Source: an uncultured Syntrophaceae bacterium (GTDB lineage: Bacteria > Desulfobacterota > Syntrophia > Syntrophales > UBA8958). From it: a stretch of DNA of 64,000 nucleotides. Every line of letters starts with the position of its first letter. Position 1 is the first letter of the stretch. Location of the stretch: NCBI GenBank assembly GCA_964492965.1, contig CAZBME010000010.1:11031-75030 (forward strand), in the 5' to 3' direction. A program made the position numbers and the translations under genes. The notes below the pieces were generated by a model. That model was not told where the DNA came from. It made no database searches and worked only from the letters and a program-made list of their open reading frames with translations. Of the stretch, positions 5,969-24,368 are shown in pieces.

Positions 5969-6011
5969 ACACAGCATCTTAAGCCATGCTGCGGGTAAAG
6001 GTCTTTTTTTT
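5958..6011 (+). terminator. Intrinsic terminator forming the riboswitch expression platform
   Basis: AAGACCUUUAC (5958-5968) pairs with GUAAAGGUCUU (5995-6005) and is followed by a U-run to 6011. The 5' arm is the 3' strand of aptamer P1, so the aptamer and terminator are mutually exclusive. Confidence 0.8.
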
Positions 6012-6040
6012 GCCCTGCAGCGGCAAATGGAGGAAGATCG

Positions 6041-6778
6041 ATGATTGACTTGGGTTCGTTAGGCCACATCGCTTTTACTTGGGAGTTTCTGGCCGCTGTG
6101 ATCAGTATCATTATGATCGACTTGGTTCTGGCCGGCGACAACGCCGTGGTGATCGCAATGGCTTGCAAAAACCTGCACGGCAGGGAACGTAAACTGGGAA
6201 TTATTCTAGGGGCGGGTGGCGCTGTTGTCATCCGGGTGGCCTGTACCTTTATGGTGGCCCAACTGCTCACGATGCCATTCATAAAACTGATAGGCGGTGC
6301 GGCGATCGTATGGATTGCCGTCAAGCTGCTCACCGACGGCGCCAAAGAAGATTGTCCGGAACGCGAGTGTTTAAGCCTCTGGCAGGCGCTATGGATCATT
6401 ATCGTGGCTGACCTGAGCATGGGCATTGACAACATGCTGGCCGTCGGCGCTGCCAGTCACGGCAACCTGATACTGCTTCTTTTCGGACTGGCCCTTTCAA
6501 TCCCCTTCGTGGTGTTCATGAGTGGTATGCTTTCTAAAATGATAGACAAGTATCCCCTTATTCTTTGGGCAGGCGCAGCGATCCTCGGCAAGGTCGGAGG
6601 TGAGATGATGATCACCGATCCATGGCTCCAGGGCCTATTGACCCCTCCCAAGTGGTTAGAATATGTCATGATTGCATTCTCGGTGGTCTTCATTTGCGGG
6701 GTGAGCAAGATGATCATACGCAAACGCAAGGCAGCGCTTTCGGGCGGACGTCCTGCCGTCATCGAGCAGGTGCTCTAA
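6041..6778 (+). CDS. TerC-family integral membrane protein (putative Mn2+/metal exporter)
   Basis: 245-aa polytopic ORF with the TerC-like LAGDNAVVIA and GIDNMLAV repeats. RBS GGAGGAAG lies 5 nt upstream. Confidence 0.9.
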   Translation: MIDLGSLGHIAFTWEFLAAVISIIMIDLVLAGDNAVVIAMACKNLHGRERKLGIILGAGGAVVIRVACTFMVAQLLTMPFIKLIGGAAIVWIAVKLLTDGAKEDCPERECLSLWQALWIIIVADLSMGIDNMLAVGAASHGNLILLLFGLALSIPFVVFMSGMLSKMIDKYPLILWAGAAILGKVGGEMMITDPWLQGLLTPPKWLEYVMIAFSVVFICGVSKMIIRKRKAALSGGRPAVIEQVL

Positions 6779-6901
6779 AGGTTATCATGCAGCGACAACC
6801 AAGAGAAGAACAGGTGTCCTTGGCTACCGTACAGGCTATAATAGCTAACAGGCCTTTTAGTCCGATGACTGCAAAGTATCATAGAGAGAAGTGATCTTAA
6901 T

Positions 6902-8443
6902 TTAAGTGTCCACAATAGTATTAAGGCCTCTCGCCATGACAAAAAACGGCGCATGATTGGACGTAAAAACGGGCGGGTCGCGCTTCAGGATGGCGGCTGT
7001 CACGGGATGGCGCTTGAACTGCCGGTCCAGGAAATGCCGGATTTGCGGACGATTCCAGCCCTGCGGGTGAACAAAATCCTGATACAGGGACAGATCGCCG
7101 TCATAGAAATCCCTCGTTTCCAGGTCCCCGGCGGAATCGATGGGCAGGTTGAAAATCGCCACATTCAGAAAGTCGATGAACTCGCCGTGACGGGCGACAA
7201 AATCCAGGGTTTTCCCGGCATCATGCGGTGTTTCCGGCGGCGTTCCGAAGAGAAGATAGACGTAGGTGGCAATACCGGCTTCCTTCAGGGTTCTGAGGAC
7301 GAGGGAGGCCGTCTCCAGATCAATCCCCTTATGAAGGCCGTTCAGGACATCCTGCGACCCCGATTCGAGGCCCAGCTTAAGCATGACGCAACCCGAATTT
7401 TTCAGGCGGCGGCAAAAATCCCCGTCTGCCAGATGATCCGTGATGCGGACGAAGCCGTACCAGGGGACGCCGATGCTCCCGTTTGAGAGCGCCTTCAGTA
7501 GGGCCGGGCTCATGGCATTATCCAGAAAATGGATCAGGGAGGGCTTTTCTTTCATTGTTAACACTTGAAGGTCCGCCATCACCTGATCTGCGGGAATGGG
7601 GTTGTAGGAATTCCCCTCCGCCGTCTCCGGGCAGAAGGAGCACTTCCGCCAGTAGCAGCCCTGCGAGGCGCTGTAGGGCAGCACGACAGGGGGCGACAAA
7701 TAGTTCGGCAACAGGAATGCGCTGTAATCGGGACCTGTCGCCGACCCGTCGTGGGATTTGCCGGCCATGGCCAGCAGGGGATTTTCTCCCGGTCCGGCGA
7801 TCAGGTCATCCACAAGCCCGGCAAAAGGGTTTCTGCCCTGCAGGCGTTTGTGCCATGAAGTGACCAGCCCGCCGCCGAGGACAATCCTGGCGGAAGGCGC
7901 CGCCTGATGGAGAAAACCGATCATGGCAAACGCGCACAAGGCCTGGCTGAGATAATTGAGGGATAACCCGATGATCCGGGGTTGTTCTTCCCGCAGGACG
8001 GGAAGCAGACGGTCACGGAAATAGGGATGAAAAGGATTTCCTTCCGGCCTTTGCGCGGCCCGGATCAGATCGGCGCTTCTGACGGGGGACAGAAGGCGAT
8101 CTTCATAATTGGCCAGGCCGATCTGAAGGCGGGCGTCCACTGTTTTTTCAAGAATCCGCGACAGATCTGAAACGGCGCGCCGATAGCGGTCCGGATGATC
8201 GTAAAGCGGCTGTGCCCGAAGGGCTTCCATGTGGGTTAGACCGTGGCGAAAGGCCCGCCGTGTCCAGGTATCGACGCCTGCGGTGGGTGCATTCCGCCCC
8301 TGAAGAAGATAGAGAAGCCCTTCCAGAGAGGCATCGATGACGCGATATGGAACGGCGTGATGCTTCAGGGCGCCGGCCAGTTTTGCAAGGCCCGCCGGGG
8401 CTTCGCCGGGTTTGCTGACGGGAGGGTGGATAAGAAGAATCAT
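6902..8443 (-). CDS. B12-binding-domain radical SAM enzyme
   Basis: 513 aa. The N-terminal MILLIHPP...LAKLAGALK resembles a cobalamin-binding Rossmann-like domain. The cysteine cluster is GCYWRKCSFCPE. Downstream is GCVMLKLGLESGS. It is the last gene of a four-gene operon. Confidence 0.8.
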   Translation of the reverse strand: MILLIHPPVSKPGEAPAGLAKLAGALKHHAVPYRVIDASLEGLLYLLQGRNAPTAGVDTWTRRAFRHGLTHMEALRAQPLYDHPDRYRRAVSDLSRILEKTVDARLQIGLANYEDRLLSPVRSADLIRAAQRPEGNPFHPYFRDRLLPVLREEQPRIIGLSLNYLSQALCAFAMIGFLHQAAPSARIVLGGGLVTSWHKRLQGRNPFAGLVDDLIAGPGENPLLAMAGKSHDGSATGPDYSAFLLPNYLSPPVVLPYSASQGCYWRKCSFCPETAEGNSYNPIPADQVMADLQVLTMKEKPSLIHFLDNAMSPALLKALSNGSIGVPWYGFVRITDHLADGDFCRRLKNSGCVMLKLGLESGSQDVLNGLHKGIDLETASLVLRTLKEAGIATYVYLLFGTPPETPHDAGKTLDFVARHGEFIDFLNVAIFNLPIDSAGDLETRDFYDGDLSLYQDFVHPQGWNRPQIRHFLDRQFKRHPVTAAILKRDPPVFTSNHAPFFVMARGLNTIVDT

Positions 8444-8455
8444 GAGCGGTACGGA

Positions 8456-9481
8456 TCAGGCCAGGAGAGGAACCCCGTGGTCCTTGTCATCCGTCAGGAT
8501 TTCAAAGGCCGCCCGGTTCTTCGTGAAAAGGACTTCCCGTTTTGTTCCTTTGCCGCGACGATCTTCGAACCGGACCTCGCAGGAGGCAATCTTCGTATTG
8601 AGGCAATGCTTCATGCCGCCGGGGGGATTGTGATAGGCCAGCGCCACGAAGGATTCTTTCGGCGCGGCGATCGTGCCGTCAATGCGTATCCCCCGGGTTT
8701 CGGCCCGGAAAACCCAGGTGAAGTTGGAAAAGGAGCCCCGGGAATCGCAAAGCTTGAAAAAGGTGTTGAAGGCAAATTCCTCTCCGCGATGGCGCAGGAC
8801 AACCGGTGTGACATAAGGCGTCCGCAGGGAACCCCAGCGGAGGCAGGCCGTTGCCGCTTCCAGAAAGCTCTGCTGATGGGTGTCGAATCCCGCAACCTGC
8901 CCCCAGGCGTAGTCGTCCGTATGCCGCGACCCCCAGTTGTGGTTCTGGGAACCGACCCAGTTGTCGATCTCGTAACGTTTGTCATCAATGGCGAGAAATC
9001 CGTTGAAAACAGCCAAAGGCAATCCCACCAAGCTCTTGGCCCTCGGGAATTTGCTTTTATAGCGGTTTGACGGCAGGAGAAACAAAGGCTTCTCCCATCC
9101 CTGAAAATCCATGCGCCAGGTCATATGATGCCCCCCGGAGGCCGCACTTCCTTGAAGAACCCCTTCGCCCAGAGTAGCATCACCGATTTGTGCAAAGAAA
9201 CGTGAGGCGTCAAAGTTACATTCGGTGATGGGAACGATCTTCTTGACGGCGGCGTGCCGTCCCGTTTCCCCGTCAAACCAGACGCCCCATAATTCCCCTA
9301 TCGTTTCTTCCGGCCGCAGGCGCGGATTGAAAAGGGTATAGCGGATCCAGAAGGCCAGGGGCCGTTCGGCATGATTCGCCCGGACAAAATAGCTCTCGTA
9401 GAATCCCGATGTGTCCCCGGGAACATAACGGGAGAAATTGGCCTGTCGGCGCAGGGTATCCAAATCGACGGGCATAGCCAT
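8456..9481 (-). CDS. Tocopherol-cyclase-like (VTE1-family-like) protein, function unknown
   Basis: 341 aa. The blocks GFYESYFVR...AFWIRYTLFNP and KFPRAKS...YEIDNWVGSQNHNWG parallel the FFEGWYVR...NP and FPRA...NWG blocks of cyanobacterial tocopherol cyclase as I recall it. It abuts the methyltransferase gene (TAAATG). Confidence 0.5.
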   Translation of the reverse strand: MAMPVDLDTLRRQANFSRYVPGDTSGFYESYFVRANHAERPLAFWIRYTLFNPRLRPEETIGELWGVWFDGETGRHAAVKKIVPITECNFDASRFFAQIGDATLGEGVLQGSAASGGHHMTWRMDFQGWEKPLFLLPSNRYKSKFPRAKSLVGLPLAVFNGFLAIDDKRYEIDNWVGSQNHNWGSRHTDDYAWGQVAGFDTHQQSFLEAATACLRWGSLRTPYVTPVVLRHRGEEFAFNTFFKLCDSRGSFSNFTWVFRAETRGIRIDGTIAAPKESFVALAYHNPPGGMKHCLNTKIASCEVRFEDRRGKGTKREVLFTKNRAAFEILTDDKDHGVPLLA

Positions 9482-10318
9482 TTATTGGGCAATGACCTCC
9501 ATTAAAATGATGCGATTCTCATCAAGATTCCGGGCTACATTTTGGGACATAAGGCGTATTTCCGGCCCCAGAAGGATTTGCAGTCCTAGGGGCGGTTTCC
9601 CTCCCTCTTGCTGCTTTCTTTTGGCGGCTACCTCACGAAACCAGTTTCGGCCCAGTTCCGATGTATCACGAGCGCTCAAAATTTTAAACCCCGTTTTATC
9701 AAGGAGCTCATACAAAGCTTCCGGAGACACGAGGAAACTCATGGACGGGTCTCGCGCCCAGGGAAGCGGGAAGAGGGGAGGCCCGCCCGGACCGGCCAGG
9801 GCATCGTACATGGCAAAAAGGCCGCCGGGTTTCAATACCCGCCGAATTTCCGCATAAAGCCCGGTCTTGTCTGAAATATTCATGGCGGCATGCTGTGTCC
9901 AGACCACATCAAAAGCGGCATCCGGAAACGGCATTGCCAGGGCATTGCCGTGGAGATAGGTCAAACGGGAGGTCATGCCCAGCCGCTCGGCAATCATCCG
10001 GGCCGCCTCGCAGTACGGTTCCGTCAGGTCGAGGCCGGTGACATGGCAGCCGAATTCGTAGGCCAGATGCCGGGAAGGGCCGCCAATGCCGCAGCCGACA
10101 TCCAGGACCCGATGCTCAGCGCGCAGGCCCATCTTTCCGGCCAGCTCCAACGTGGCCTCCCGCCCCCGGACGTGAAACTCATCAATGGGCGCCGTATCTT
10201 CCGGCCGGAGATGGTCCGTGTCCTTGCCGAGGGCTGTCAGGGCCGACAGAATCGCCTCTTTCAGATCCCGGGGGGCGTAATGTGTCTCCAGGCTGTCCAT
10301 AGAATATCTGTCTTTCAT
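9482..10318 (-). CDS. Class I SAM-dependent methyltransferase (gamma-tocopherol/MPBQ-methyltransferase-like)
   Basis: 278 aa. Motif I is VLDVGCGIGGPSRHLA and the post-I/II blocks are DLTEP...GNALAMPFPDAAFDVVW...LKPGGLF. ATGA overlap with the upstream gene. Confidence 0.8.
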   Translation of the reverse strand: MKDRYSMDSLETHYAPRDLKEAILSALTALGKDTDHLRPEDTAPIDEFHVRGREATLELAGKMGLRAEHRVLDVGCGIGGPSRHLAYEFGCHVTGLDLTEPYCEAARMIAERLGMTSRLTYLHGNALAMPFPDAAFDVVWTQHAAMNISDKTGLYAEIRRVLKPGGLFAMYDALAGPGGPPLFPLPWARDPSMSFLVSPEALYELLDKTGFKILSARDTSELGRNWFREVAAKRKQQEGGKPPLGLQILLGPEIRLMSQNVARNLDENRIILMEVIAQ

Positions 10319-12426
10319 TTGAGTTGTTTAGTTGCCGGTTCATGAAAGAATACCCGGGCATCGACAATGGATACTCCCTTCCCTTCGGGATGAACAATCA
10401 CGGGATTGAGATCCAGTTCGCGAATCTCCGGGCACTGATGCATCAGGGATGATACGCGGCAGATGATCTCGACCAGGACATCCATATCGGACCGTCCCTG
10501 CCCCCTGGCCCCCTGCAGCAGGGGATAAGCCTTGAGCTCTCCGAGCATATCCTTTGCCTCCAGCTTTGTTACCGGTGCCAGGCGAATAGCCGTATCCTTG
10601 AAAATCTCTATGAAGATGCCGCCCAGCCCGACCATCACGATAGGACCGAAAACGGGATCACGCCGCCCGCCGACAAAACACTCGATCCCCTTCGGCGCCA
10701 TTTCCTGCACCAGAAAACCGTCGACTGTCGGACGCGGCTCAAGCTTTTTCATCGCCGCTTCCATCTCGGAAACGGCCTTGGTTAATGCTTTTTTCGTACG
10801 GATATTCACCTTCACACCGCCGACATCGGACTTGTGGGAGGCATCCCGTGACAGTAGCTTCAAGACGAAGGGGGGTCGTAAAGAAAGGCCGCCTACGGAT
10901 TCGGCGTCACGGATCACCTGTCCCTTCACGGGCATGATGCCTGCGGTCCCGCAGATGGCCAGGGCTTCGTCCGTCAGGGGAATCCGACCCTCTCCGGTGC
11001 ATTGTTCTTGTATGCCCCGGATGGCCTTAAGGCCGATATTATAAATAGCTTCCGGCCCGCGGCTGTCCCGTGCGGTTTTGCGTTCATGGTAGGTTGCGGA
11101 GAGGTCAAGGGCCATCGCCGCCTCCAGGGGAGACGTAAAGATGGGGTAAGGGTGATGCATCGACAAATCCACAATCTCATGCCGATCAGAAACCATGGCC
11201 ATGGAGACGGGCTTCTGATATTTTTTCACAAGCTCGTCCACGCCGGTCAGGAATGTCCGCGACATCTCGGCCTCATAATGGGACTGGTAGAGATGATTGA
11301 AAAGAACGCCGTCCACCTCTTCAAGTTTCATGGCCTCTTCCAGAATATTTGTAAAGATGGTGTAATCAAATATTTCTCCCAGATCCAGTGGATTTTGGTG
11401 GGCAATGACCCGGGTATTGTAAATGGTTTTGAGCTTCTCGATAAAGGAGGGCGGAAAGGGAACCATATCGAAGCCGTATTTCTCACAGGCGTCAGCGGAC
11501 AAAACAGCATGTCCGCCGGACCGGGAAAGCACGGCGACGCGCCGGCCTTTCATCAACGGAAGGCGGATCATTTTCACAGCGTTGACAAACTCCAGTTCGT
11601 CATCCACACGGATGACCGCCGCCTGTCGAAACGAACTGTCGACCACCGCATCATCGCTGGAAAGGGCCGTCGTATGGGATTGGGCGATCCGGGCGCTTAC
11701 AGGACTCCGGTTTGATTTCTGAATAATGATGGGTTTTTCGGCTTTCATGGCAAGATCGAAGAAAGCCCGGCCCCGTTTGAAACCTTCCAGATAAACCGTG
11801 ATCACATCGGTTTTCTCGTCCTGAAGAAAATATTCCAGAAAATCCGCTTCGTCGAGCATCAGCTTGTTGCCGATGGCCGCAAATTTCCCCGGAACGATAC
11901 CGTGTCCGGCCACGGCACGCATATAGGTCCCGCCTATGCCGCCGCTCTGAGCAATGAGGCCAACCCGGCCCCCGGTCTTGATGTCCTTATAAAAGCCGAA
12001 GGGCATCATCATCTTGATATCGAAATTAACCGTTCCCACACAGTTTGGCCCGATAAGTTTCATCCCGTATTTTTGGGCAATGGCCAGCACGTCCTCTTCC
12101 AGGGAATGATCGCCGTGGGAATACTCGCTGAAACCGCCCGATTCGATGACAATGCGTTTGATCCCTTTTTTACCGCAGGCCTCCAAGAGGGCCGGGATTG
12201 TTCTTGCCGGCGTCAAAAATATTGCGACCTCAGGCGTTTCAGGAAGGCTTGCGACATCCGTATAAACGCGAACACCACCGATTTCGCCTTCCTGGCTGCC
12301 CACACCATAGAGGTTTCCTTCATATCCATTCTGCTTGTTGTTCAGAAGAACGATCTGCCCCAGATTCATTTTGGTAACCGATGCCCCGAATACGACCATA
12401 CTGCGGGGATAAAAAAATTTTTCCAT
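10315..12426 (-). CDS. Acetate--CoA ligase family protein, ADP/NDP-forming (fused alpha/beta acyl-CoA synthetase)
   Basis: 703 aa. The N-terminal part is a CoA-binding domain (FFYPRSMVVFGAS...GPNCVGT), the middle is a ligase-CoA domain, and the C-terminal part is an ATP-grasp domain (VLKLLSRDASHKSDVGGV). Confidence 0.85.
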   Translation of the reverse strand: MEKFFYPRSMVVFGASVTKMNLGQIVLLNNKQNGYEGNLYGVGSQEGEIGGVRVYTDVASLPETPEVAIFLTPARTIPALLEACGKKGIKRIVIESGGFSEYSHGDHSLEEDVLAIAQKYGMKLIGPNCVGTVNFDIKMMMPFGFYKDIKTGGRVGLIAQSGGIGGTYMRAVAGHGIVPGKFAAIGNKLMLDEADFLEYFLQDEKTDVITVYLEGFKRGRAFFDLAMKAEKPIIIQKSNRSPVSARIAQSHTTALSSDDAVVDSSFRQAAVIRVDDELEFVNAVKMIRLPLMKGRRVAVLSRSGGHAVLSADACEKYGFDMVPFPPSFIEKLKTIYNTRVIAHQNPLDLGEIFDYTIFTNILEEAMKLEEVDGVLFNHLYQSHYEAEMSRTFLTGVDELVKKYQKPVSMAMVSDRHEIVDLSMHHPYPIFTSPLEAAMALDLSATYHERKTARDSRGPEAIYNIGLKAIRGIQEQCTGEGRIPLTDEALAICGTAGIMPVKGQVIRDAESVGGLSLRPPFVLKLLSRDASHKSDVGGVKVNIRTKKALTKAVSEMEAAMKKLEPRPTVDGFLVQEMAPKGIECFVGGRRDPVFGPIVMVGLGGIFIEIFKDTAIRLAPVTKLEAKDMLGELKAYPLLQGARGQGRSDMDVLVEIICRVSSLMHQCPEIRELDLNPVIVHPEGKGVSIVDARVFFHEPATKQLK

Positions 12427-12504
12427 CTACGATTGCTCCTTCCGCTGCACGCTTGAAATAATGGTATTGGGGAGGCTGCGGCCCGCTGACCCGGAGCCCC
12501 GCCC

Positions 12505-12541
12505 CGTATAGATTAATTAAGGTTGATGTGTCAAGTTGACA
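12505..12541 (-). promoter_or_regulatory. Candidate promoter with palindromic -35 region upstream of the 12426-6902 operon
   Basis: A 13-bp palindrome TGTCAA-G-TTGACA lies at 12529-12541. On the minus strand it supplies TTGACA, followed after 18 nt by TATACG (12505-12510). Confidence 0.3.
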
Positions 12542-12585
12542 TTGCCAATCCTGCTATCCTGAGGCTAAACTCAGTTATAATGATA

Positions 12586-13251: not shown

Positions 13252-13320
13252 CGATCGCCTCAAATAATGAAATATGAAAAACCTGTGTGAAGACATGGAT
13301 TTTACCAATACTTCGAGTAT

Positions 13321-13450: not shown

Positions 13451-13506
13451 AGATTAATTAACTAGAAGTTAACAGCATAGAATATCGCATGAAAGGTGGA
13501 AAAGCC

Positions 13507-15123
13507 ATGGATGTTATAGAAACCGGAATCGATAAGAACTCCGATGAATTCAAGAAGAATTACGAGGCCATGGCATCTCTCGTGGCGGATCTCAAGTTGG
13601 AATTAAAAAAAGCGCGGGAAGATCGGCCCCAGAAAGTAATCGACCGGTTAGCCGCCCAGGGTAAGATGCCCGTGCGGAAAAAGCTGGATCTGCTCCTCGA
13701 TAAAAATACCCCGTTTCTGGAGATTGCGCCACTGGCCGCCAGAGGTGTGTATGACGGAAAGGTTCACGCGGCAGGGCTTGTGAGCGGCATTGGCGTGGTG
13801 GAGGGCCGCGAGGTCCTTGTCGTTGCCAGTGATGCCACGATCAAGGGCGGGTCGGTTTATCCCCTGGGCGTCAAGAAAAACCTTCGCTGTCAGGCCATCT
13901 GCATGGAAAACCGCCTGCCCATGGTTAATCTCCTCGATTCTGCCGGCGCCTATCTGCCCCTGCAATCGGAGATTTTCCCCGACGTCGATGACGGCGGGAG
14001 AATTTTCTACAACCAGGCAGTCATTTCCAAAATGGCCATCCCCCAGATAACGGCGGTCATGGGCCTTTGCACGGCAGGCGGCGCCTATGTGCCGGCCATG
14101 TCAGACGAGGTCGTTCACGTCAAGGGCACCGGTGCGATCTTCTTGGGCGGTCCGCCCCTCGTTCTGGCGGCTACGGGCGAAGAAGTGACCGCGGATCAGC
14201 TCGGTGGCGCGGAAGTGCACTGCATCGAGTCGGGTGTATCGGACTATTTTGCCGAGGATGACGCCCACGCCATTGCGATTGTCCGTAAAATTGTCAAAGC
14301 CCTTCCGAATAACGAGAAGGCCCGGTTGAGCCTGCGGGAGCCCAGGCCGCCTCTCTACGATCCCCGGGAACTTTACGGGGTCGTAAGCCGGGATCTGAAG
14401 GTTCCCTATGATTGCCGGGAAGTCATCGCCCGCATCGTTGACGGCAGCGAATTCCTCGAATTCAAGGAGCTCTATGGACCGACGCTTGTTTGCGGATTTG
14501 CCTATATCCACGGTTATCCCGTGGGTATCCTGGGAAATAATGGGATTCTCTTCTCGAACAGCGCCCTCAAGGCAACCCAGTTTATCCAGCTATGCGACCG
14601 GCGAAAAATCCCCCTTGTCTTCCTGCAGAACATCAACGGCTATATTATCGGCAAGGAATACGAGCGACTTGGCATCACCAAAGATGGACACAAGATGGTT
14701 AATGCGGTTTCCACCTGCACTGTACCCAAGTTCACCGTCATTGTGGGCGCCTCCTTTGGTGCAGGCAATTACGGCATGTGCGGGCGGGCCTATTCGCCGC
14801 GTTTCCTGTGGATGTGGCCTAATGCCCAGATCGGCGTTATGGGGGGCGAGCAGGCGGCAGGGGTCCTGATGACCCTCAAGAATGACCAGAACGCCAAAGC
14901 GGGACTGCCGCCCATGACCAAGGAAGAAGAACAATTGATCCGGGGGCCGATCGTGGAAGCCGCCAAGAAGGAGGGCGATGCCTACTATAGTACGGCAAAT
15001 CTATGGGATGACGGCATCCTCGATCCGGCCGACACCCGCAATGTCCTGGGGTTGGCCATCTCCGCTGCCCTTAATGCGCCTATCCGGGATGATGTGACGG
15101 GATTCGGGATATTCAGGATGTGA
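13507..15123 (+). CDS. Acyl-CoA carboxylase carboxyltransferase (beta) subunit, methylcrotonyl-/geranyl-CoA carboxylase type (LiuB/AtuC-like)
   Basis: Starts MDVIETGIDKNSDEFKKNYEAM...AAQGKMPVRKKLDLLLD. It also carries MGLCTAGGAYVPAMSDE and the end IFRM. Start placed at ATG 13507 behind AAAGGTGGA; the ORF-track start is 13489. Confidence 0.9.
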   Translation: MDVIETGIDKNSDEFKKNYEAMASLVADLKLELKKAREDRPQKVIDRLAAQGKMPVRKKLDLLLDKNTPFLEIAPLAARGVYDGKVHAAGLVSGIGVVEGREVLVVASDATIKGGSVYPLGVKKNLRCQAICMENRLPMVNLLDSAGAYLPLQSEIFPDVDDGGRIFYNQAVISKMAIPQITAVMGLCTAGGAYVPAMSDEVVHVKGTGAIFLGGPPLVLAATGEEVTADQLGGAEVHCIESGVSDYFAEDDAHAIAIVRKIVKALPNNEKARLSLREPRPPLYDPRELYGVVSRDLKVPYDCREVIARIVDGSEFLEFKELYGPTLVCGFAYIHGYPVGILGNNGILFSNSALKATQFIQLCDRRKIPLVFLQNINGYIIGKEYERLGITKDGHKMVNAVSTCTVPKFTVIVGASFGAGNYGMCGRAYSPRFLWMWPNAQIGVMGGEQAAGVLMTLKNDQNAKAGLPPMTKEEEQLIRGPIVEAAKKEGDAYYSTANLWDDGILDPADTRNVLGLAISAALNAPIRDDVTGFGIFRM

Positions 15124-15249
15124 CGGCCTTGGAAAAAGCCCATCTGCTTCGACCTTTTGGCAAGGCCGCTAAGACATGCATTGAAGACATGATCCGTAAG
15201 TTCGAAGAGATCGGATGCTATCTCCGACTAAGCTGAGAGAGGAATCAAA

Positions 15250-16737
15250 ATGTTTGAAAAGATACTTATTGCCAACCGGGGGGAAATCGCCGTCCGTATT
15301 ATGGCTACCTGCCGGGAAATGGGCATTAAAACCGTGGCCGTCTATTCCGAAGCTGATCGGGAGGCCCTCCATGTGATCGAGGCAGACCAGGCAATCTGCC
15401 TGGGCCCTGCGGAACCATCCGAAAGCTATCTCCACACAGACCGCATCATCGCTGCTGCCAAGGATACGGGAGCGCAGGCCATCCATCCCGGCTACGGGTT
15501 CCTGGCGGAGAATCACGCTTTTGCAGACCGATGTGCACAAGAAGGTGTCATCTTTATCGGTCCCCCTGCCAGGGCCATCCGGAATCTGGGAGACAAGACG
15601 GTGGCACGGCGGATCATGATCGAAAGCGACGTGCCCGTCATTCCGGGGATGATGACGGCGGAAGGGGATCCCGATATTCTGGTGCAGGAAGCCGAAAGGA
15701 TCGGCTATCCCGTTATGATCAAGGCCGCCGGCGGCGGAGGCGGAAAGGGGATGCGGATCGTACGGAATCCGGCAGAATTCCGGGAAGCCGCCGTCTCTGC
15801 CGCAAGCGAAGCCAAAAGCGCCTTCGGCAACGGAGACATTTATCTAGAAAAATATATCGAGCGGCCGCGCCATATTGAATTCCAGATTCTCGCGGATAGT
15901 CGGGGAAATGTCATTCATCTACTGGAACGGGAATGCTCGATCCAGCGGCGGCACCAGAAGATCATCGAGGAAACGCCGTCGCTTGCTCTGACGCCTGCCC
16001 TCCGGGACATCATGGGCAAAGCGGCCGTGGCCGCAGCCAAGGCCGCCGGATACGTAAACGCCGGAACGGTTGAATTTTTACTCGACGAGACGGGTAATTT
16101 CTATTTTCTGGAGGTCAATACCCGTCTCCAAGTGGAACACCCCATCACGGAGATGATCACAGGAATCGATCTGGTGCGGCAGCAGATCGAAATCGCTGCC
16201 GGCAACCCCTTGAAACTTACCCAGGAAAAAATCGTCGGCCGTGGCCACGCCATCGAGTGCCGTATCTATGCCGAGGACCCCTTGAGTGACTTTATGCCGT
16301 CACCGGGGAAAATCCACTTCGTCAAGGAACCCAGGGGGGGCGGCGTCCGGAATGATTGCGGCATATATTCCGGCTATACGGTCCCCATGGAATACGACCC
16401 CATCCTCTCAAAACTGATTACCCATGCCGAAACGCGGGAAGCATGCATAGAGCGTATGATCAGAGCCCTCAGAAGCTATGTGATCCTGGGTGTCCTGACG
16501 CCCATCCCGTTCCTCGTCGATGTGATTTCTTCGCAAGCCTTTCGTCAAGGGGAGACCTGCACGGATTTTATTGCCGCCCATTTTGGCGATTGGCAACCTT
16601 GCCTCGGGAATATCAAACTGGCGGGCCTCGCCTATGTGGCGGATCAGGTCTTGCCGCGCGGCATGAAGAACAACCTGATTCCCACAGCAGGTCAATCGCT
16701 TTCTCCGTGGCTGACGCTTGGGCATTTCCGACCCTGA
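15250..16737 (+). CDS. Biotin carboxylase subunit (BC domain plus part of the BT region) of the acyl-CoA carboxylase
   Basis: Starts MFEKILIANRGEIAVRI. It also carries GYPVMIKAAGGGGGKGMR, EVNTRLQVEHPITE and the ATP-grasp fold. Confidence 0.92.
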   Translation: MFEKILIANRGEIAVRIMATCREMGIKTVAVYSEADREALHVIEADQAICLGPAEPSESYLHTDRIIAAAKDTGAQAIHPGYGFLAENHAFADRCAQEGVIFIGPPARAIRNLGDKTVARRIMIESDVPVIPGMMTAEGDPDILVQEAERIGYPVMIKAAGGGGGKGMRIVRNPAEFREAAVSAASEAKSAFGNGDIYLEKYIERPRHIEFQILADSRGNVIHLLERECSIQRRHQKIIEETPSLALTPALRDIMGKAAVAAAKAAGYVNAGTVEFLLDETGNFYFLEVNTRLQVEHPITEMITGIDLVRQQIEIAAGNPLKLTQEKIVGRGHAIECRIYAEDPLSDFMPSPGKIHFVKEPRGGGVRNDCGIYSGYTVPMEYDPILSKLITHAETREACIERMIRALRSYVILGVLTPIPFLVDVISSQAFRQGETCTDFIAAHFGDWQPCLGNIKLAGLAYVADQVLPRGMKNNLIPTAGQSLSPWLTLGHFRP

Positions 16738-16772
16738 CAGGCAGTCGAACACTGAACAATAAGGAGGCCTCC

Positions 16773-17312
16773 ATGGAATACAACCTGAAAATCGGGAAAC
16801 TCAATCTTCCCGTTATCGCCGATCTCCCGGATGACGGCACGTTGTCGGCATCCGTCGGGAATGAGACATATGCCGCCCGCAATCGGCGAATTTCGGATAA
16901 CCAGATCCACATGGAACTCGACGGCAGGAGCCTCTGCGTCTATGTGGTTGACCTGCCGGACGGCAAACTCATCAATATCGAGGGGACGTCCTATCTGATC
17001 GAGGATGCCGACAGCCTTGCCCGGAAAAATCCCCGGAAGCGCGCGCAAAAGGAGGGCACCGGGGAGATTACCCCACCCATGCCCTCAGTGGTTGTACGCA
17101 TCCTGGTGGTGGAGGGTGAGCGGGTGGAAAAGGACCAAGGCATCATTGTGGTCGCGGCCATGAAGATGGAGGCCACCCTCTGCGCATCCTACAATGGGAT
17201 CGTTCTCAAGGTAAACGTCTCCGAGGGGGATAAGGTCATGCCCGGCCGGATCCTCGTCGATATTAAAAAAGAAGAAGCGGAAATTCCACAGCAAGATCAT
17301 CCAGTCGCTTGA
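16773..17312 (+). CDS. Biotin carboxyl carrier protein (separate BCCP subunit)
   Basis: ATG 16773 lies behind AAGGAGG (16761-16767). The C-terminal biotinyl domain carries VAAMKMEA. The ORF-track start at 16356 overlaps the BC gene and is rejected. Confidence 0.85.
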   Translation: MEYNLKIGKLNLPVIADLPDDGTLSASVGNETYAARNRRISDNQIHMELDGRSLCVYVVDLPDGKLINIEGTSYLIEDADSLARKNPRKRAQKEGTGEITPPMPSVVVRILVVEGERVEKDQGIIVVAAMKMEATLCASYNGIVLKVNVSEGDKVMPGRILVDIKKEEAEIPQQDHPVA

Positions 17313-17330
17313 TGAAAGGAGACAGGAGAG

Positions 17331-18101
17331 ATGACGGAAGACCATGTGCTCTATCGCCTGGAAAACCATGTGGCCCATATCACCCTTAATCGCGAAAGCC
17401 AGAGAAATGCCATCACCACGGAGGCCCTTACTCTTTTCCTCGCTTATCTGGACCGGGCCGAGGCCGATGAAGCCGTGCGGGCCGTACTGATTACCGGAGC
17501 GGGGGAAAAGGCCTTCTGTACGGGAGCCCAATTGGGTGACGGCCTGTCGGCGGAGGGGCAAAAAGCATTCCGGGACTATGCCCGGTTGCTCAAACGCATT
17601 GCTACGTTTCCCAAACCTACCGTCGCCCGGGTGAAGGGTTTCTGTCTGGCCGGCGGCATGGGCTTTATGCTGGCCTGCGACATCGTCATCGCCGGCGAGG
17701 ATTCCCGGTTCGGCACCCCGGAGGTCAACGTGGGCCTGTGGCCCATGATGATCGGGGCCCTGATCTTCCGCAATGTCCCCCGGAAAAAAGCGATGGAAAT
17801 GATCCTCCTGGGCGAGCGTCTCAGCGCCACGGAAGCCCTGGGTATGGGGCTGATCACGCGTGTTGCGCCGATGGATCAATTGGAAGAAACGGTTGGGGCC
17901 ATTCTGGAAAGTCTTATCGCAAAGAGTCCCATCGGCATCAGGATCGGCAAGGAGGCCTTCCATGAAGCCTCTTCCATGTCCCTGGATGAGGCGCTGGATT
18001 TTCTCTCCGAGAAGTTTCTGGCGGTAACCTCGACGGCAGATGCCCGGGAAGGCATTACGGCCTTTATCGAAAAAAGATCCCCGCAGTTTACGGGGAAATA
18101 G
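17331..18101 (+). CDS. Enoyl-CoA hydratase/isomerase family protein (methylglutaconyl-/isohexenylglutaconyl-CoA hydratase position)
   Basis: 256 aa with the crotonase fold: ITLNRESQRNAIT, FCTGAQL, CLAGGMGFMLACD. Confidence 0.85.
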   Translation: MTEDHVLYRLENHVAHITLNRESQRNAITTEALTLFLAYLDRAEADEAVRAVLITGAGEKAFCTGAQLGDGLSAEGQKAFRDYARLLKRIATFPKPTVARVKGFCLAGGMGFMLACDIVIAGEDSRFGTPEVNVGLWPMMIGALIFRNVPRKKAMEMILLGERLSATEALGMGLITRVAPMDQLEETVGAILESLIAKSPIGIRIGKEAFHEASSMSLDEALDFLSEKFLAVTSTADAREGITAFIEKRSPQFTGK

Positions 18102-18113
18102 AGGAGAAAACGC

Positions 18114-19895
18114 ATGGGACAAGAGGATAACAAGAACAGAGGCACGGTTGTCATCGCCAATTGCAGCGGGTTTTTTGGCGATCGTTTCAGCGCCGCCAAA
18201 GAAATGATTCAGGGAGGACCGATTGATTTCCTGACCGGCGATTATCTTGCGGAACTGACCATGGCGATTCTCTTCCGGACCAAAAGCAAGGACCCGAACG
18301 GCGGATATGTATCAACCTTTCTCAAGCAGATGGAACAGATCATGGGAGAGTGCCTTGACAGAAAAATACGCGTGGTTTCGAACGCCGGCGGCCTGAATCC
18401 GCAAGGCCTGACGGTGGAATTGGTTCGTATCGCCGAAACTCTGGGCCTCCATCCCCGGATTGCCTATATCGAGGGGGATGATCTCATGGATCGCCTGAGC
18501 GACCTTCAGGCACAAGGAGAACCCTTCCTTCATCTGGATAAGGGAACCGCCCTGAAGGATTCCCGGGCCATCACCATCTCTGCAAATGCCTATCTGGGGT
18601 GCCGGGGCATCGTGAAGGCCCTCGATGAAGGAGCCGACATCGTTATCGGCGGCCGCCTCGCCGACGCTTCCCTGGTGGTCGGTCCGGCGGCCTGGTGGTT
18701 CGGCTGGTCGTCCAATGACTGGGACAGGCTGGCAGGGGCCACGACAGCGGGTCATATCATCGAATGCGGCGCTCAGGCCACGGGCGGCAACTACTCCTTT
18801 ATCGACGAGGTTCCCAGTTTCAAAAACGTCGGTTTTCCCATAGCCGAGATTTCTGCCGACGGCTCCTTCGTCATCACCAAGCACCCGAATACGGGCGGCC
18901 TTGTCTCCGTGGACACGGTCAAGGCGCAGTTGCTCTACGAAATAAGTTCTCCCCGCTACCTGACGCCGGATGTGGCGGCCCGATTCGACACCATCAGGAT
19001 CTCTCAACAGGGCCCCGACCGGGTGCGGGTGGAGGACGTCCGGGGCGAACCGCCTACGGCCACCGCCAAGGTCTGTATCAACACCCTGGGCGGGTTTCGC
19101 AACGCCATGACCATTATTCTCACAGGGCTGGATATCGAGAAAAAGGCCCATATCCTGGAAGATACCCTCTTTGATGCCTTGGGCGGCAAAGATCAATTTC
19201 AGCAGGCCCATGTCCAACTCATCCGGTCCGACAAGGAAGACCCCGCCACCAATGAAGAAGCCTTTGCCTATCTGCGCATTACGGTAGTCGATCCCGATCC
19301 CAAGAAAGTGGCCCGGGTTTCGTCCGGGATTGTCGAGCTGGCATTGGCCAACATCCCCGGCTTTGCAGGGACCGCGCCGCCGTCCAAGGGAACGCCCGCC
19401 ATCATGTACTGGCCGGCTCTCGTGTCGAACCGGCATATCCGGCAAAAAGTGATCATCCATGGGGAAGAATTCATCATCCCGGTCCCTACGCCTGTGGAAG
19501 AATTTGTTGTGCCGGAGCCCCTATCCGTTGTCCTTCCTCCCGTTCCGTCCGGCAAAACGGTCCGGATGCCCCTGGGCCGCATCTTTGCCACCCGTTCCGG
19601 CGACAAGGGTGGGAATGCCAATCTCGGGGTGTGGGCCAAAACGCCGGAGGCCTTTGCTTTCCTGCGAACCTATTTAACCCCGGAACGCCTGCGGGACCTC
19701 CTCAAGGATATTAAAAATTATGAAATCGAGCGCTACGAACTGCCCAACCTTCTTGCCGTGAATTTTTATATCCGGGGCCTCCTGGGCGAAGGCGTCGCCT
19801 CATCGTTCAGACTGGACGGGCAAGCCAAGACCCTGGGCGAGTACCTGAGGGCCAAGATGGTGGACATGCCGGAATCGATAGGACAAGGGAAATAG
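18114..19895 (+). CDS. AtuA-like acyclic-terpene-utilisation protein (DUF1446 family), biochemical function unknown
   Basis: 593 aa with IANCSGFFGDR, FLTGDYLAELTM, GGRLADASLVVGP...GHIIECGAQATGGNYSF. The length matches full-length AtuA. Confidence 0.75.
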   Translation: MGQEDNKNRGTVVIANCSGFFGDRFSAAKEMIQGGPIDFLTGDYLAELTMAILFRTKSKDPNGGYVSTFLKQMEQIMGECLDRKIRVVSNAGGLNPQGLTVELVRIAETLGLHPRIAYIEGDDLMDRLSDLQAQGEPFLHLDKGTALKDSRAITISANAYLGCRGIVKALDEGADIVIGGRLADASLVVGPAAWWFGWSSNDWDRLAGATTAGHIIECGAQATGGNYSFIDEVPSFKNVGFPIAEISADGSFVITKHPNTGGLVSVDTVKAQLLYEISSPRYLTPDVAARFDTIRISQQGPDRVRVEDVRGEPPTATAKVCINTLGGFRNAMTIILTGLDIEKKAHILEDTLFDALGGKDQFQQAHVQLIRSDKEDPATNEEAFAYLRITVVDPDPKKVARVSSGIVELALANIPGFAGTAPPSKGTPAIMYWPALVSNRHIRQKVIIHGEEFIIPVPTPVEEFVVPEPLSVVLPPVPSGKTVRMPLGRIFATRSGDKGGNANLGVWAKTPEAFAFLRTYLTPERLRDLLKDIKNYEIERYELPNLLAVNFYIRGLLGEGVASSFRLDGQAKTLGEYLRAKMVDMPESIGQGK

Positions 19896-20029
19896 ATGGC
19901 AAGGAGACGTTCGCCGTCTTCAAAGACCCGAAGATCTTAGCATTTCGCTCCGGGCTTTCCCCGTCGAGTGTGGGTAAGGTGCTGCGCCGGGTCCTCAAAA
20001 ATGAGGGACTGACGAAGCGGAAAAGATAG
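19895..20029 (+). pseudogene. Possible relic of the C-terminus of an AMP-dependent ligase
   Basis: The frame starting at 19895 reads DGKETFAVFKDPKILAFRSGLSPSSVGKVLRRVLKNEGLTKRKR*. The pattern PK-I-F...P-S-GK-LRR-L resembles the conserved ligase C-terminal end. Confidence 0.3.
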
Positions 20030-20069
20030 GAGAGTCCGAAGTTCAAGTCGTTTATCAGGAGATGGTCCT

Positions 20070-20340
20070 ATGAACAGAAACCAGTTTTGGCGGCGGTCCT
20101 ACGACGACAACAGGGAAGACATCCCTCCCGGTCTGTTTTAACCCCCCTACACCCGGGTGATCCGGCCCTGAAAGAGGGTATTCTTGCGTTTTTAAGGGAC
20201 AAACTGGCGTCTTTCGAGATGCCGAAATGGATCGAGTTCATGAAGAAGCTGCCCCTGATGCCGGAGGGAAACTCGACAAGAAAGTCCTGCGGAGGGATGC
20301 GCCGCATCGGCTGTCGGGGAATTTTAAGGCTGAAGGATAA
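20070..20340 (+). pseudogene. Internally deleted, frameshifted acyl-CoA ligase (FadD/AtuH-like) pseudogene
   Basis: An RBS (GGAGA) and ATG 20070 give MNRNQFWRRSYDDNREDIPPGLF*, a ligase-like N-terminus. The next stretch reads HPGDPALKEGILAFLRDKLASFEMPKWIEFMKKLPLMPEG in another frame. After a shift near 20262 it reads GGKLDKKVLRRDAPHRLSGNFKAEG*. The ~480 central codons are missing. Confidence 0.6.
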
Positions 20341-20402
20341 TAATATCATTTGCTTCAGCCTTCAGCCTATTCACCTCAATAATACAAAGACAAGGAGAAA
20401 CT

Positions 20403-22205
20403 ATGGGACAGAATTTTTACAAGCGGGATGACCGGGATGTGCGGTTCGTTCTGAAAGAACATCTGGGCGTGGAACAGCTTCTCAATTTCGACGTCTATAG
20501 GGGATTTACCATGGCGGATTTTGACATGATCCTCAACCAGGCGCAAAAGATTGCCCTGAACGATCTCGCCCCGGCCTTCCAGGATGGCGATCGGGAGGGC
20601 TGCCGTTTCGATGCCGGGACAGTCCGGGTGCCCGCCTCATTCCACCGTTTATGGGATGTCTTCCGTGAAGGCGGCTGGTTTTCCCTGGCCAATAACCCGG
20701 AATACGGCGGTCAGGGCTTGCCTCTCATCATCGCCGAAGCCGCGGCGGAATTCTTCATCAGCGCCAATTTCGGGTTTTGCACCTTCTCCGGGATGGGACC
20801 GGGAAACGGCTACATGATTGAGAGCTTCGGCTCGAAAAAGTTGAAGGACCTCTTCTGTCCCAAGATGTACGACGGGACCTGGTGCGGCACCATGTGCCTG
20901 ACAGAACCCAGTGTGGGGTCCGACGCCCATATGGTGACGGCCAGAGCGATTCCCGAAGGGGAATACTACCGGATCCAGGGTACGAAGATTTTCATCACAT
21001 CAGGGGAGCATGATCTGACGGAAAACATCATCCATCTGGTCATCGCCCGGATTGAAGGGGCGCCCGCCGGGGCGAAAGGCGTTTCGCTTTTTGCCGTGCC
21101 GAAGATCTGGGTGAACGAGGACGGGTCCCTGGGAGAGCTCAACGACATGGCTTGCATCGGCATTGAGCACAAGATGGGATTGAACGCCTCTGCGACATCC
21201 GTCCTGAATTTCGGAGAGAACGGCCGCTGCCGTGGCCACCTCATCGGCGAGACGGGCATGGGACTGGCCTACATGTTCCAGATGGTGAACGGCGCGCGGA
21301 TGGCCGTAGGGCTCGAAGCGGTGGCCTTCGGGGCCAACATTTATGCGAACATCCTCGCCTATGCGAAAGAGCGGGTTCAGGGAACGCCCTTCGGCAAGGG
21401 CGGCGACCGGGTCCGGATTGTGGAGCATGCCGACATCCGCCGGATGCTCATGAATCTCAAGGCGCTCACGGAGGGTATGCGGGCCCTGGTGTACAAAGCC
21501 TATCTTGAGGAGGATCTCTCCCATAACTGTCCCGATGAGGAAAGACGCAAGAAGGCCAAGCGGCGCATGGAACTGCTGACCCCCCTGGTCAAGGCGTACT
21601 GTTCGGACCGGATCTTCGAGATGGGTCGCGACGGCATCCAGATTCTCGGAGGGTACGGCTTCACCAAGGAATACCCCGTGGAGCAATACACGAGGGATTG
21701 CAAGATCCTCTCAATCTGGGATGGAACCAACTACATTCAGTCCGCCGATCTGGTCGGTCGCAAACTGAACATGTCGGGCGGCAAGGTTTTTGTCGAGTGG
21801 GTTGAGGAGGTAACGGCCTTTGTCCGGGAACACCTCGAAGACAAGACTTTTGCTCGGGAGATGGCCCTTCTGGAAGAGGCGCTTCAGACGATCATCGGTC
21901 TGGCCGCAGACTACGGCCGCTTTTTCCAGGAGGGGAAAATAGATCTGATTCCCTTCACCTCGACACGTTTTCTTGATTCCATGGCGGAAGTGGCCATCGG
22001 CCACCTGTTCCTCGAACAGGGACTCATCGCCCAGTCGAAACTCGCTATGGGCGGCCTCGATGGGGCAGACCGGAATTTCTACGCCGGTAAGGTGGAGACG
22101 GTACGCTACTACTGCCGGAACTTCCTCCCCCAGGTCTTCGGCCGGGCACGGATCATCCGGATGGAGGATATGACGGCGATGAATATCCCCGAGGAACAAT
22201 TATAA
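20403..22205 (+). CDS. Acyl-CoA dehydrogenase, long (~600 aa) form with C-terminal extension domain
   Basis: Carries WCGTMCLTEPSVGSDA, YRIQGTKIFITSGEHD and ILGGYGFTKEYPVEQYTRDCKILSIWDGTN. Confidence 0.9.
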   Translation: MGQNFYKRDDRDVRFVLKEHLGVEQLLNFDVYRGFTMADFDMILNQAQKIALNDLAPAFQDGDREGCRFDAGTVRVPASFHRLWDVFREGGWFSLANNPEYGGQGLPLIIAEAAAEFFISANFGFCTFSGMGPGNGYMIESFGSKKLKDLFCPKMYDGTWCGTMCLTEPSVGSDAHMVTARAIPEGEYYRIQGTKIFITSGEHDLTENIIHLVIARIEGAPAGAKGVSLFAVPKIWVNEDGSLGELNDMACIGIEHKMGLNASATSVLNFGENGRCRGHLIGETGMGLAYMFQMVNGARMAVGLEAVAFGANIYANILAYAKERVQGTPFGKGGDRVRIVEHADIRRMLMNLKALTEGMRALVYKAYLEEDLSHNCPDEERRKKAKRRMELLTPLVKAYCSDRIFEMGRDGIQILGGYGFTKEYPVEQYTRDCKILSIWDGTNYIQSADLVGRKLNMSGGKVFVEWVEEVTAFVREHLEDKTFAREMALLEEALQTIIGLAADYGRFFQEGKIDLIPFTSTRFLDSMAEVAIGHLFLEQGLIAQSKLAMGGLDGADRNFYAGKVETVRYYCRNFLPQVFGRARIIRMEDMTAMNIPEEQL

Positions 22206-24226: not shown

Positions 24227-24267
24227 TCACCGTGATTGACGGCCATCACAAAAAATCCGGAAAAGGC

Positions 24268-24303
24268 TCTCCTCTACTGTATGAGAGAGGAGATTATTAT
24301 TTG
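24268..24303 (+). terminator. Candidate intrinsic terminator after the FadB-like gene
   Basis: An 8-bp stem pairs UCUCCUCU (24268-24275) with AGAGGAGA (24286-24293). A U-rich tail UUAUUAUUU follows. Confidence 0.45.
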
Positions 24304-24368
24304 ATCAATAGGCCTTGACAGCAGCCGGCGACCTGGCGTAGTTCTTCCGTTATGTTACCTTTTATTAA

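Follow-up and report, generated by a model that had tools for sequence, protein, structure and literature searches.

A tocopherol-cyclase-like barrel protein paired with a class-B-type radical-SAM enzyme in an operon of an uncultured Syntrophales bacterium

Results

Operon structure

We analyzed a four-gene operon in a 64,000-nucleotide stretch of contig CAZBME010000010.1 (assembly GCA_964492965.1) from an uncultured Syntrophales bacterium; the whole stretch is referred to here as the window. The four open reading frames (ORFs) are co-directional on the minus strand and encode an NDP-forming acyl-CoA synthetase (the synthetase), a class I S-adenosylmethionine (SAM)-dependent methyltransferase, a tocopherol-cyclase-like (TC-like) protein with a predicted double beta-barrel, and a class-B-type radical-SAM enzyme (rSAM) (Table 1). 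Full-length homologues are known for all four ORFs, which are therefore real genes, and their arrangement indicates a real, compact operon. Within it, the TC-like and rSAM genes appear to be the conserved pair, and they may together tailor lipophilic chains without oxygen.

The genes are closely packed. The stop and start codons of the synthetase and methyltransferase genes overlap in an ATGA (10318-10315), the methyltransferase gene meets the TC-like gene in a TAAATG (9484-9479), and between the TC-like stop codon (TGA, 8458-8456) and the rSAM ATG at 8443 lies a spacer of 12 nt (8455-8444). Read base by base, the three junctions are exactly as described in the original prediction, which was made from the sequence alone. 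An AAGGAG can be read upstream of the synthetase ATG. The TTGACA-N18-TATACG site in the leader was not called by the promoter scan, an Rfam search of the leader returned no riboswitch, a GC-rich leader hairpin is no more stable than its shuffles (z = 0.28), and the terminator scan found fewer sites than in shuffles and none at the operon end. The sequencing runs that contain window DNA are rock-metagenome DNA runs only. As originally proposed, the neighboring genes fit an anaerobe (ferredoxin-type proteins, Fe-ADH, and nitroreductase-Fer4), and neither HPPD nor a prenyltransferase was found among the window ORFs scanned.

Table 1. Features of the operon and its surroundings in the window.
Feature	Position	Strand	Details
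Operon leader and promoter region	12427..12585	-	TTGACA 12534-12529, 18 nt, TATACG; sequence reading
NDP(ADP)-forming acyl-CoA synthetase, fused alpha-beta type	10315..12426	-	703 aa, operon gene 1
Class I SAM-dependent methyltransferase	9482..10318	-	278 aa, operon gene 2
TC-like protein, predicted double beta-barrel	8456..9481	-	341 aa, operon gene 3
Class-B-type radical-SAM enzyme (rSAM)	6902..8443	-	513 aa, last operon gene
TetR-family regulator	12586-13332	-	Directly upstream of operon; Pfam TetR_N
Candidate TetR operator half-site, 12-mer TTAATTAATCTA	12520-12509	-	Overlaps TTGACA-N18-TATACG promoter-like site
Second exact TTAATTAATCTA copy	13450-13461	-	TetR/carboxyltransferase intergenic region, inside imperfect palindrome TAGTTAATTAATCTAC...GTAGATATTTAACTA
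Atu/Liu-like cluster, divergent neighbor	13489..26258	+	Pfam and NCBIfam; context, not shown to be part of the operon
TerC gene	6041-6778	+	Convergent, downstream of operon

The tocopherol-cyclase-like protein

Gene 3 had been proposed to encode a tocopherol-cyclase-like protein. Searched against Pfam, its product does match the tocopherol cyclase family PF14249 (E 0.0019), with 17.8 bits, below the cut-off of 26.6. Because 39 of 56 diverse TC-like relatives match PF14249 at E <= 0.01 (best E 6.7e-17), we take the homology to be real but remote, at superfamily level only. True tocopherol cyclases carry the signature YxEKNWG followed by FPxWxWxQxNxF (PMC4963081). Where these enzymes have YxEKNWG, the window protein has SQNHNWG (178-184), with the Glu and Lys replaced, and so does not qualify as a true tocopherol cyclase. 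The sequence continues with YAWGQVAGF (191-199); from the cyclase signature only NWG and W.Q...F are retained. Its length of 341 aa compares with 488 aa for the Arabidopsis tocopherol cyclase (PMC4963081). Given the sub-threshold score and the lost motif, "tocopherol cyclase" was rejected as a name for the gene. The proposed family relationship stands at this wider level.

These findings bear on the chromanol model that came with the original prediction. In that model, the methyltransferase acts on a quinol ring (like VTE3/VTE4), a prenylquinol such as menaquinol is cyclized to a chromanol by the TC-like protein, and rSAM methylates a non-nucleophilic carbon. In its favor are the true homology to PF14249, the retention of NWG and (Y/W)xWxQxxxF (NWG and WxQxxxF being shared with VTE1 and Slr1737, to which the homology is remote but real at family level), and the chemistry of tocopherol cyclase itself, which is the same proton-initiated addition of oxygen to a C=C bond as in the pathway considered in the Discussion. 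The loss of YxEKNWG and the sub-threshold score weigh against it.

"Tocopherol cyclase-like" proteins in heterotrophic bacteria were noted in 2016, their function then being unknown (PMC4963081). The TC-like family has 3861 homologues in a collection clustered at 90%, numbers 1487 clusters at 50% identity, and occurs in Syntrophales, Chloroflexota, Binatia, Sorangium, Rhodocyclales, Desulfatibacillum, and Bacteroidota.

The AlphaFold (AF2) model of the TC-like protein, built on 56 sequences, has a confidence (pLDDT) of 95.7 and predicts a double beta-barrel, AttH-like fold. Its best Foldseek matches in the PDB are AttH (2ICH; E 8.8e-11) and kievitone hydratase (7A0Q), together with the fungal decalin pericyclases Phm7, Fsa2, and CghA and the 25-phosphosteroid lyase (9G4C and 9FZN). 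Match probability is 1.0 (7A0Q and 9G4C), with template modeling (TM) scores of 0.5-0.57 and a sequence identity of 8-14%. Among these relatives, the hydratases and the lyase act on isoprenoid C=C bonds by addition or elimination, and the pericyclases catalyze cycloadditions in polyketide chains. The predicted barrel is shared with CrtC, 7A0Q, AttH NE1406 (2ICH), and 9G4C, whose substrates are hydrophobic isoprenoids. The sequence of the TC-like protein gives no match to these CrtC/AttH-fold hydratases and lyases at the level of hidden Markov models: neither it nor the relatives scanned match the CrtC or AttH Pfam families. A PDB sequence search gave a chance match only, and a search with the family profile gave nothing. 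For Rv3169, a weak NCBIfam match, the literature offered no functional lead.

In the family alignment, E29, W45, G111, G161, H181, and E327 are invariant, and Trp is near-invariant at many positions. Also conserved are H181-N-W183 and F206-L-E208. The HxW motif (H181 and W183), with the acidic E208 about 27 positions on, resembles in its spacing the catalytic residues H239xW241 and Y266xD268 of CrtC (PMC4717167); the structural equivalence is putative. Together, the conserved acidic residues, His, and many Trp residues fit carbocation chemistry, as judged from the alignment.

One further protein (P0241; L174, 3157-5148) fuses an alpha/beta hydrolase (Hydrolase_4, lysophospholipase-like) to a TC-like domain sharing 50% identity with the protein of the window. 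This fusion, seen on a single contig, could hint at a lipid-ester substrate.

The radical-SAM enzyme

The last gene had been described as a B12-dependent radical-SAM enzyme. Its radical-SAM domain is confirmed by Pfam (PF04055, 37.3 bits), and the N-terminal match to the B12-binding domain (PF02310) is sub-threshold, at 27.7 bits with a cut-off of 32.1. The best PDB sequence match is AprD4 (6FD2). The AF2 model (pLDDT 90.8) matches AprD4, TsrM, OxsB, MgmA, and CysS in Foldseek, and its predicted architecture is that of class B: an N-terminal, B12-binding-like Rossmann domain followed by a radical-SAM barrel, as in these enzymes and the PhpK family. Unlike class-B families, which have CxxxCxxC, rSAM has a noncanonical Cx4Cx2C cluster motif (C263, C268, and C271). 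The three cysteines are invariant in 60 sequences, within an invariant longer family motif, GCYWxxCSFCPE. Every NCBIfam model stays well short of its cut-off; PhpK scores best, with 80 of 600 bits.

The family is very large and strongly conserved. At least 5857 homologues were found at E ≤ 0.001 among 8000 candidates scored, and many of them, across phyla, are 56-61% identical to the window protein. Stand-alone Cx4Cx2C genes are widespread in anaerobic bacteria (e.g., L089, L090, L156, and L125; loci are given by their L numbers), often with a xylose-isomerase-like TIM-barrel gene (AP_endonuc_2) on their upstream side and lepA-hemW on the other. The neighbors of these stand-alone copies (AP_endonuc_2, lepA, hemW, amidohydrolase, inositol monophosphatase, and PilZ) gave no functional clue.

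Genomic context supports the use of cobalamin by rSAM. In one lineage (L173, L175, and L176), btuF-like, FecCD, and TonB-receptor genes directly follow rSAM on the same strand, and cobalamin riboswitches are present (L173, 5515-5683 and 7545-7668; L175, 4017-4185 and 6047-6170; L176, 3995-4170). The btuF-like gene of L175 lies 49 nt after rSAM with no riboswitch between them. By this contextual evidence, rSAM is probably cobalamin-dependent.

Conservation of the pair

We sampled 80 genome loci anchored on the TC-like gene, using the closer alignment A2 to seed the locus search since the diverse alignment A1 was too variable, and 83 loci anchored on rSAM (3 individual look-ups and 80 metagenome loci). 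Further targeted look-ups were added. The TC-like and rSAM genes occur side by side in 11 loci (Table 2). The methyltransferase gene is present in five of these and the synthetase gene in four; all four genes in the same order are found only in the window, L004 (JGI, 288-kb contig), and L172. The conserved unit, on this evidence, is the TC-like and rSAM pair, with the methyltransferase and the synthetase as optional add-ons. The four-gene synteny proposed originally therefore recurs, although not as a fixed unit, and the original prediction holds on its two bioinformatic points, as the family matches PF14249 and the four-gene order is found elsewhere.

Table 2. Gene order in the loci where the TC-like and rSAM genes are linked.
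Loci	Gene order
Window, L004, L172	synthetase - methyltransferase - TC-like - rSAM
L005	synthetase - TC-like - rSAM
L009, L016	TC-like - rSAM
L010, L011, L055	TC-like - 1.2-kb gap - rSAM; metallo-beta-lactamase gene in L011 gap
L173, L175/L176	methyltransferase - TC-like - rSAM - btuF-like - FecCD - ABC ATPase (seen in L175) - TonB-dependent receptor; cobalamin riboswitches

Spacing within the module is 0-16 nt in most linked loci, consistent with coupled expression, while the flanks vary (BrkB-cNMP, BtuF, or TerC downstream). In a neighbor-joining (NJ) tree of more than 80 TC-like proteins, all eight rSAM-linked copies included fall into one clade with zero unlinked members; the copies of L172, L173, and L175, which are outside the tree, are 74-80% identical. 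The other TC-like proteins of Syntrophales group apart, in a clade of stand-alone genes beside a GYD-domain gene. The exclusive clade therefore points to a TC-like paralogue specialized to work with rSAM. In the rSAM tree, linked copies are interleaved with unlinked ones. No support values were calculated for the NJ trees.

In L004, L009, L172, and L173, the module has an acetyl-CoA hydrolase/transferase-GNAT gene divergently upstream of it, and in L092 and L104 such a gene is upstream of a stand-alone rSAM. This fusion (also in the window, 24369-26258; the L004 copy is at 4922-6799) is highly conserved, with 76-91% identity among intact copies. The simplest reading of these patterns is that, in one lineage of Syntrophales, a resident and widespread rSAM gained a specialized TC-like paralogue ahead of it, and that some members of this lineage then added the methyltransferase and the synthetase.

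Several other arrangements were observed around TC-like genes. The metallo-beta-lactamase-fold gene of L011 (11042-12223) lies between the TC-like and rSAM genes, and L010 and L055 have the same spacing. An alkyl-sulfatase-type metallo-beta-lactamase gene (L001/L002, 5969-7936) is directly upstream of a stand-alone TC-like gene. Such neighbors may hint at ester-bearing substrates. The stand-alone Syntrophales paralogue in L006-L008 and L001/L002 is followed by a small ORF and the GYD-domain gene, and in L006-L008 it sits between two pst/phoU/phoR phosphate-uptake clusters. In the cultured alkene/alkane degrader Desulfatibacillum alkenivorans DSM 16219 (L086, 6814-12516), the TC-like gene is downstream of an AMP-forming ligase gene, with a 223-aa ORF between them, and is followed by a small methyltransferase gene and then an enoyl-CoA hydratase gene. 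This species would be tractable for testing the stand-alone TC-like family.

The methyltransferase and the synthetase

The methyltransferase matches Methyltransf_11/25/31 and, in part, Ubie_methyltran in Pfam, and has motif I (VLDVGCGIGG) at 70-79. Its best NCBIfam match is the DVU_1556 family, at 80 bits with a cut-off of 155. In the PDB, its nearest matches are sugar O-methyltransferases and phosphoethanolamine N-methyltransferases, among them 6UV6 and 3BUS. The original assignment as a gamma-tocopherol-methyltransferase-like enzyme is weakened by these generic class I matches, and "gamma-TMT" was rejected as a name. The sole link to the tocopherol pathway is the automatic JGI label "MPBQ/MSBQ methyltransferase" on some homologues; UbiE is another such label. 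The MPBQ/MSBQ label favors the chromanol model, as does the position of the methyltransferase gene before the TC-like gene in 5 of the 11 linked loci, where a class I methyltransferase adjoins a TC-like gene in keeping with the logic of VTE3/VTE4 and VTE1. Against the model, the NCBIfam models of quinone methyltransferases score about 47-54 bits with the operon methyltransferase, no closer than many others.

The synthetase combines CoA_binding_2, Succ_CoA_lig, and ATP-grasp_5 in one chain, the full fused architecture of NDP-forming acyl-CoA synthetases (ACD), in agreement with the original prediction. It has an SHT at 250-252, which we take to be the candidate phosphohistidine motif of these enzymes. 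With the NCBIfam models of acetate- and 4-hydroxybutyrate-CoA ligases it scores 415-436 bits. These scores are far below the equivalog cut-offs, at about one third of them, and so do not identify its acid substrate.

Regulatory region and neighboring genes

The TetR-family regulator gene upstream of the operon gives weak NCBIfam matches to FasR and FadR-type regulators. Its GC content is 43%, versus about 57% in all neighboring genes, and that of the intergenic region 13333-13488 is 29%; the gene looks recently inserted. A strong promoter-like site was called at 13348-13321. The 12-mer TTAATTAATCTA has only two matches in the 64 kb, even with two mismatches, both of them intergenic, and a 12-mer common to both intergenic regions arose in 5 of 2000 shuffles (p about 0.0025). 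We regard it as a candidate operator for TetR that would, in this genome alone, tie the operon to the Atu-like cluster. Neither a TetR gene nor a TTAATTAA-type operator is present at the other operon loci checked (L004, L005, L009, L010, L011, L016, and L055), and the putative TetR regulation is therefore specific to this genome.

The divergent Atu/Liu-like cluster contains genes for an acyl-CoA carboxyltransferase, biotin carboxylase, BCCP, enoyl-CoA hydratase, AtuA (acyclic terpene utilization family), a large acyl-CoA dehydrogenase, a FadB-like hydratase/dehydrogenase, and the acetyl-CoA hydrolase/transferase-GNAT fusion. Its gene content suggests anaerobic metabolism of methyl-branched or isoprenoid acyl-CoAs. 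On the other side of the operon, a weak, sub-threshold match to the Mn2+ (yybP-ykoY) riboswitch (5848-6025, plus strand; 18.9 bits, E 0.062) immediately precedes the TerC gene, which belongs to a classic target family of yybP-ykoY.

Discussion

We find that two large families to which no function has been assigned, one of TC-like barrel proteins and one of Cx4Cx2C radical-SAM enzymes, are coupled genetically in a lineage of Syntrophales. We give a probability of roughly 0.4 to the reading that the pair is an oxygen-independent chain-tailoring module, in which rSAM would perform radical C-H chemistry and the TC-like protein would add an oxygen nucleophile across a C=C bond.

This proposal rests on a shared anatomy with the archaeal Ted-Hgs system. 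As reported in a 2025 preprint, Ted is a B12-dependent radical-SAM enzyme that anaerobically desaturates the saturated tails of glycerol dialkyl glycerol tetraethers (GDGTs); its gene overlaps that of Hgs, an AttH-like hydratase that hydrates the double bonds to give hydroxy-GDGTs; and Ted homologues are widespread while Hgs is restricted (bioRxiv 10.1101/2025.10.20.683597). Likewise, in our loci a class-B radical-SAM gene adjoins the gene of an AttH-fold barrel, the two are probably co-expressed, and their adjacency is conserved across 11 loci. The radical-SAM family is broad, the barrel partner is phylogenetically restricted, and the hosts are anaerobes, with the same proposed logic of radical C-H activation and then proton-initiated addition of oxygen to a C=C bond. 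Unlike Ted-Hgs, the window pair is bacterial (Syntrophales), and its barrel belongs to the tocopherol-cyclase branch (PF14249-like) rather than to the AttH/CrtC Pfam families. The window has the barrel gene before rSAM with the 12-nt spacer, not an overlap, and rSAM has Cx4Cx2C. A methyltransferase and an acyl-CoA synthetase are attached, and the substrate would be no GDGT unless the organism makes one. The likeness is one of anatomy and predicted fold. By this analogy, the module would be best described as a bacterial variant of the lipid-tailoring logic that combines a radical-SAM enzyme with an AttH-fold barrel.

In such a pathway, the pair would tailor a saturated, lipophilic alkyl or isoprenoid chain without oxygen. 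The rSAM would take a hydrogen from an unactivated C-H bond and then desaturate or C-methylate the chain. To judge by its fold relatives, the TC-like barrel would protonate a trisubstituted C=C bond, to which an oxygen nucleophile would add: adding water, as CrtC, kievitone hydratase, and Hgs do, would give a tertiary alcohol, and adding an internal hydroxyl, as tocopherol cyclase does, would give a cyclic ether. Where present, the methyltransferase may methylate the product, and the synthetase may convert a carboxyl group to a CoA thioester for transfer or further metabolism. The gene structure, the family and fold assignments, and the conservation pattern are what the analysis shows; the substrate, the order of steps, and the chemistry we infer.

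A number of observations weigh against this reading. In 75 of the 80 TC-like-anchored loci there is no rSAM neighbor. All 83 rSAM-anchored loci hold a stand-alone rSAM homologue (54-61% identity), with neither a TC-like gene nor the methyltransferase beside it, often between an AP_endonuc_2 gene and lepA-hemW. Because of this setting, rSAM may have a general role, possibly on protein, RNA, or a cofactor, that has nothing to do with the TC-like protein. As a single order supplies all linked loci, their adjacency may partly be inherited synteny, and the NJ trees are without support values. AprD4, the structure that best matches rSAM, is cobalamin-independent, and the B12 dependence of rSAM is for that reason putative. 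Finally, no candidate substrate pathway was found near the operon, and no sequence-level link to Ted, Hgs, AttH, or CrtC could be shown, the PDB search with the TC-like profile being empty and no comparison with Ted or Hgs sequences having been made.

Several of the same observations would be explained if the four genes had no common pathway and were co-transcribed by historical accident, the synthetase making acetate and ATP out of acetyl-CoA, rSAM performing a general housekeeping modification, and the TC-like protein and methyltransferase acting on unrelated substrates. The rSAM and TC-like families are mainly stand-alone, more than half of the related loci lack the synthetase and more than half lack the methyltransferase, and rSAM occupies the same position, next to the hydrolase/transferase-GNAT gene, without the other three genes in L092 and L104. 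However, all eight treed, linked TC-like copies fall in the exclusive clade and the copies from the three other linked loci are 74-80% identical, the link to rSAM persists despite turnover of the flanking genes, the genes are nearly contiguous in most loci, and Ted-Hgs provides an independent experimental precedent for this type of pair. For the synthetase, an accidental association is plausible; for the TC-like and rSAM pair it is less so, and for the operon as a whole we think it unlikely.

The operon could instead serve the anaerobic breakdown of branched, isoprenoid, or alkene-type lipophilic substrates, with the TC-like protein as an alkene hydratase or lyase, the synthetase forming the CoA ester, and the TetR-controlled carboxylase/AtuA/beta-oxidation cluster finishing the pathway. 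The window invites this reading, as the operon lies just downstream of the TetR gene and diverges from the Atu/Liu-like cluster, and both promoter regions share the exact 12-mer. A fold relative of the TC-like protein, 25-phosphosteroid lyase, is a catabolic enzyme. Neighbors of TC-like genes include AMP-ligases (7 loci), acyl-CoA dehydrogenases (7), enoyl-CoA hydratases (5), SDRs (5), and a GMC oxidoreductase (6), in loci that include the alkene degrader Desulfatibacillum alkenivorans, but these are raw counts, not set against base rates in these genomes. Moreover, none of the other related loci checked has the TetR gene or the Atu-like cluster, the known upstream flanks (L004, L009, L172, and L173) carry the hydrolase/transferase-GNAT gene instead, and the GC content of the TetR gene is foreign-looking. 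Radical-SAM enzymes usually consume SAM, which would be costly for the catabolism of a syntroph, and rSAM orthologues occur in housekeeping contexts. We consider a catabolic role quite unlikely.

Least probable, in our view, is the chromanol model, since no prenyltransferase, HPPD, or other quinone-biosynthesis gene was seen in the window or in the neighborhoods of related loci examined, the host is a nonphototrophic anaerobe (unlike the setting of VTE1), TC-like relatives are scattered in heterotrophs beside acyl-CoA enzymes and not quinone genes, and the known menaquinone radical-SAM methylases are HemN-like class C enzymes rather than class B. Of the originally suggested modification of a prenylquinone or membrane lipid, a role on a lipophilic molecule thus remains plausible, and the tie to quinones is not seen in the window or in the related loci examined. 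If a chromanol-type quinone pathway were encoded here after all, it would be the first one outside phototrophs.

The chain-tailoring reading can be taken further, to the claim that syntrophic deltaproteobacteria possess an oxygen-independent route for the functionalization of inert lipid chains, in which a cobalamin-dependent radical-SAM enzyme desaturates or branches the saturated chain, a TC-like barrel hydrates or cyclizes it, and a methyltransferase caps it. In this full form the claim is doubtful. If true, the pathway would yield bacterial lipids that have yet to be described, either hydroxylated, methoxylated, or in the form of cyclic ethers (chromanol-like), and the module would be the first equivalent of the archaeal Ted-Hgs pair in Bacteria, besides providing a first function for both the heterotrophic "tocopherol cyclase-like" family and the very large Cx4Cx2C radical-SAM family. 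We found no published report of this bacterial module in the literature.

The operon marks a place where these two families meet, and so gives experiments a definite point of entry. Should the pair work as Ted-Hgs does, then anaerobic desaturation of inert lipid chains, followed by their hydration or cyclization, would exist in Bacteria too. This would bear on how strict anaerobes remodel their membranes without oxygen, and on the origin of hydroxylated and cyclized lipid biomarkers in anoxic sediments and the subsurface.

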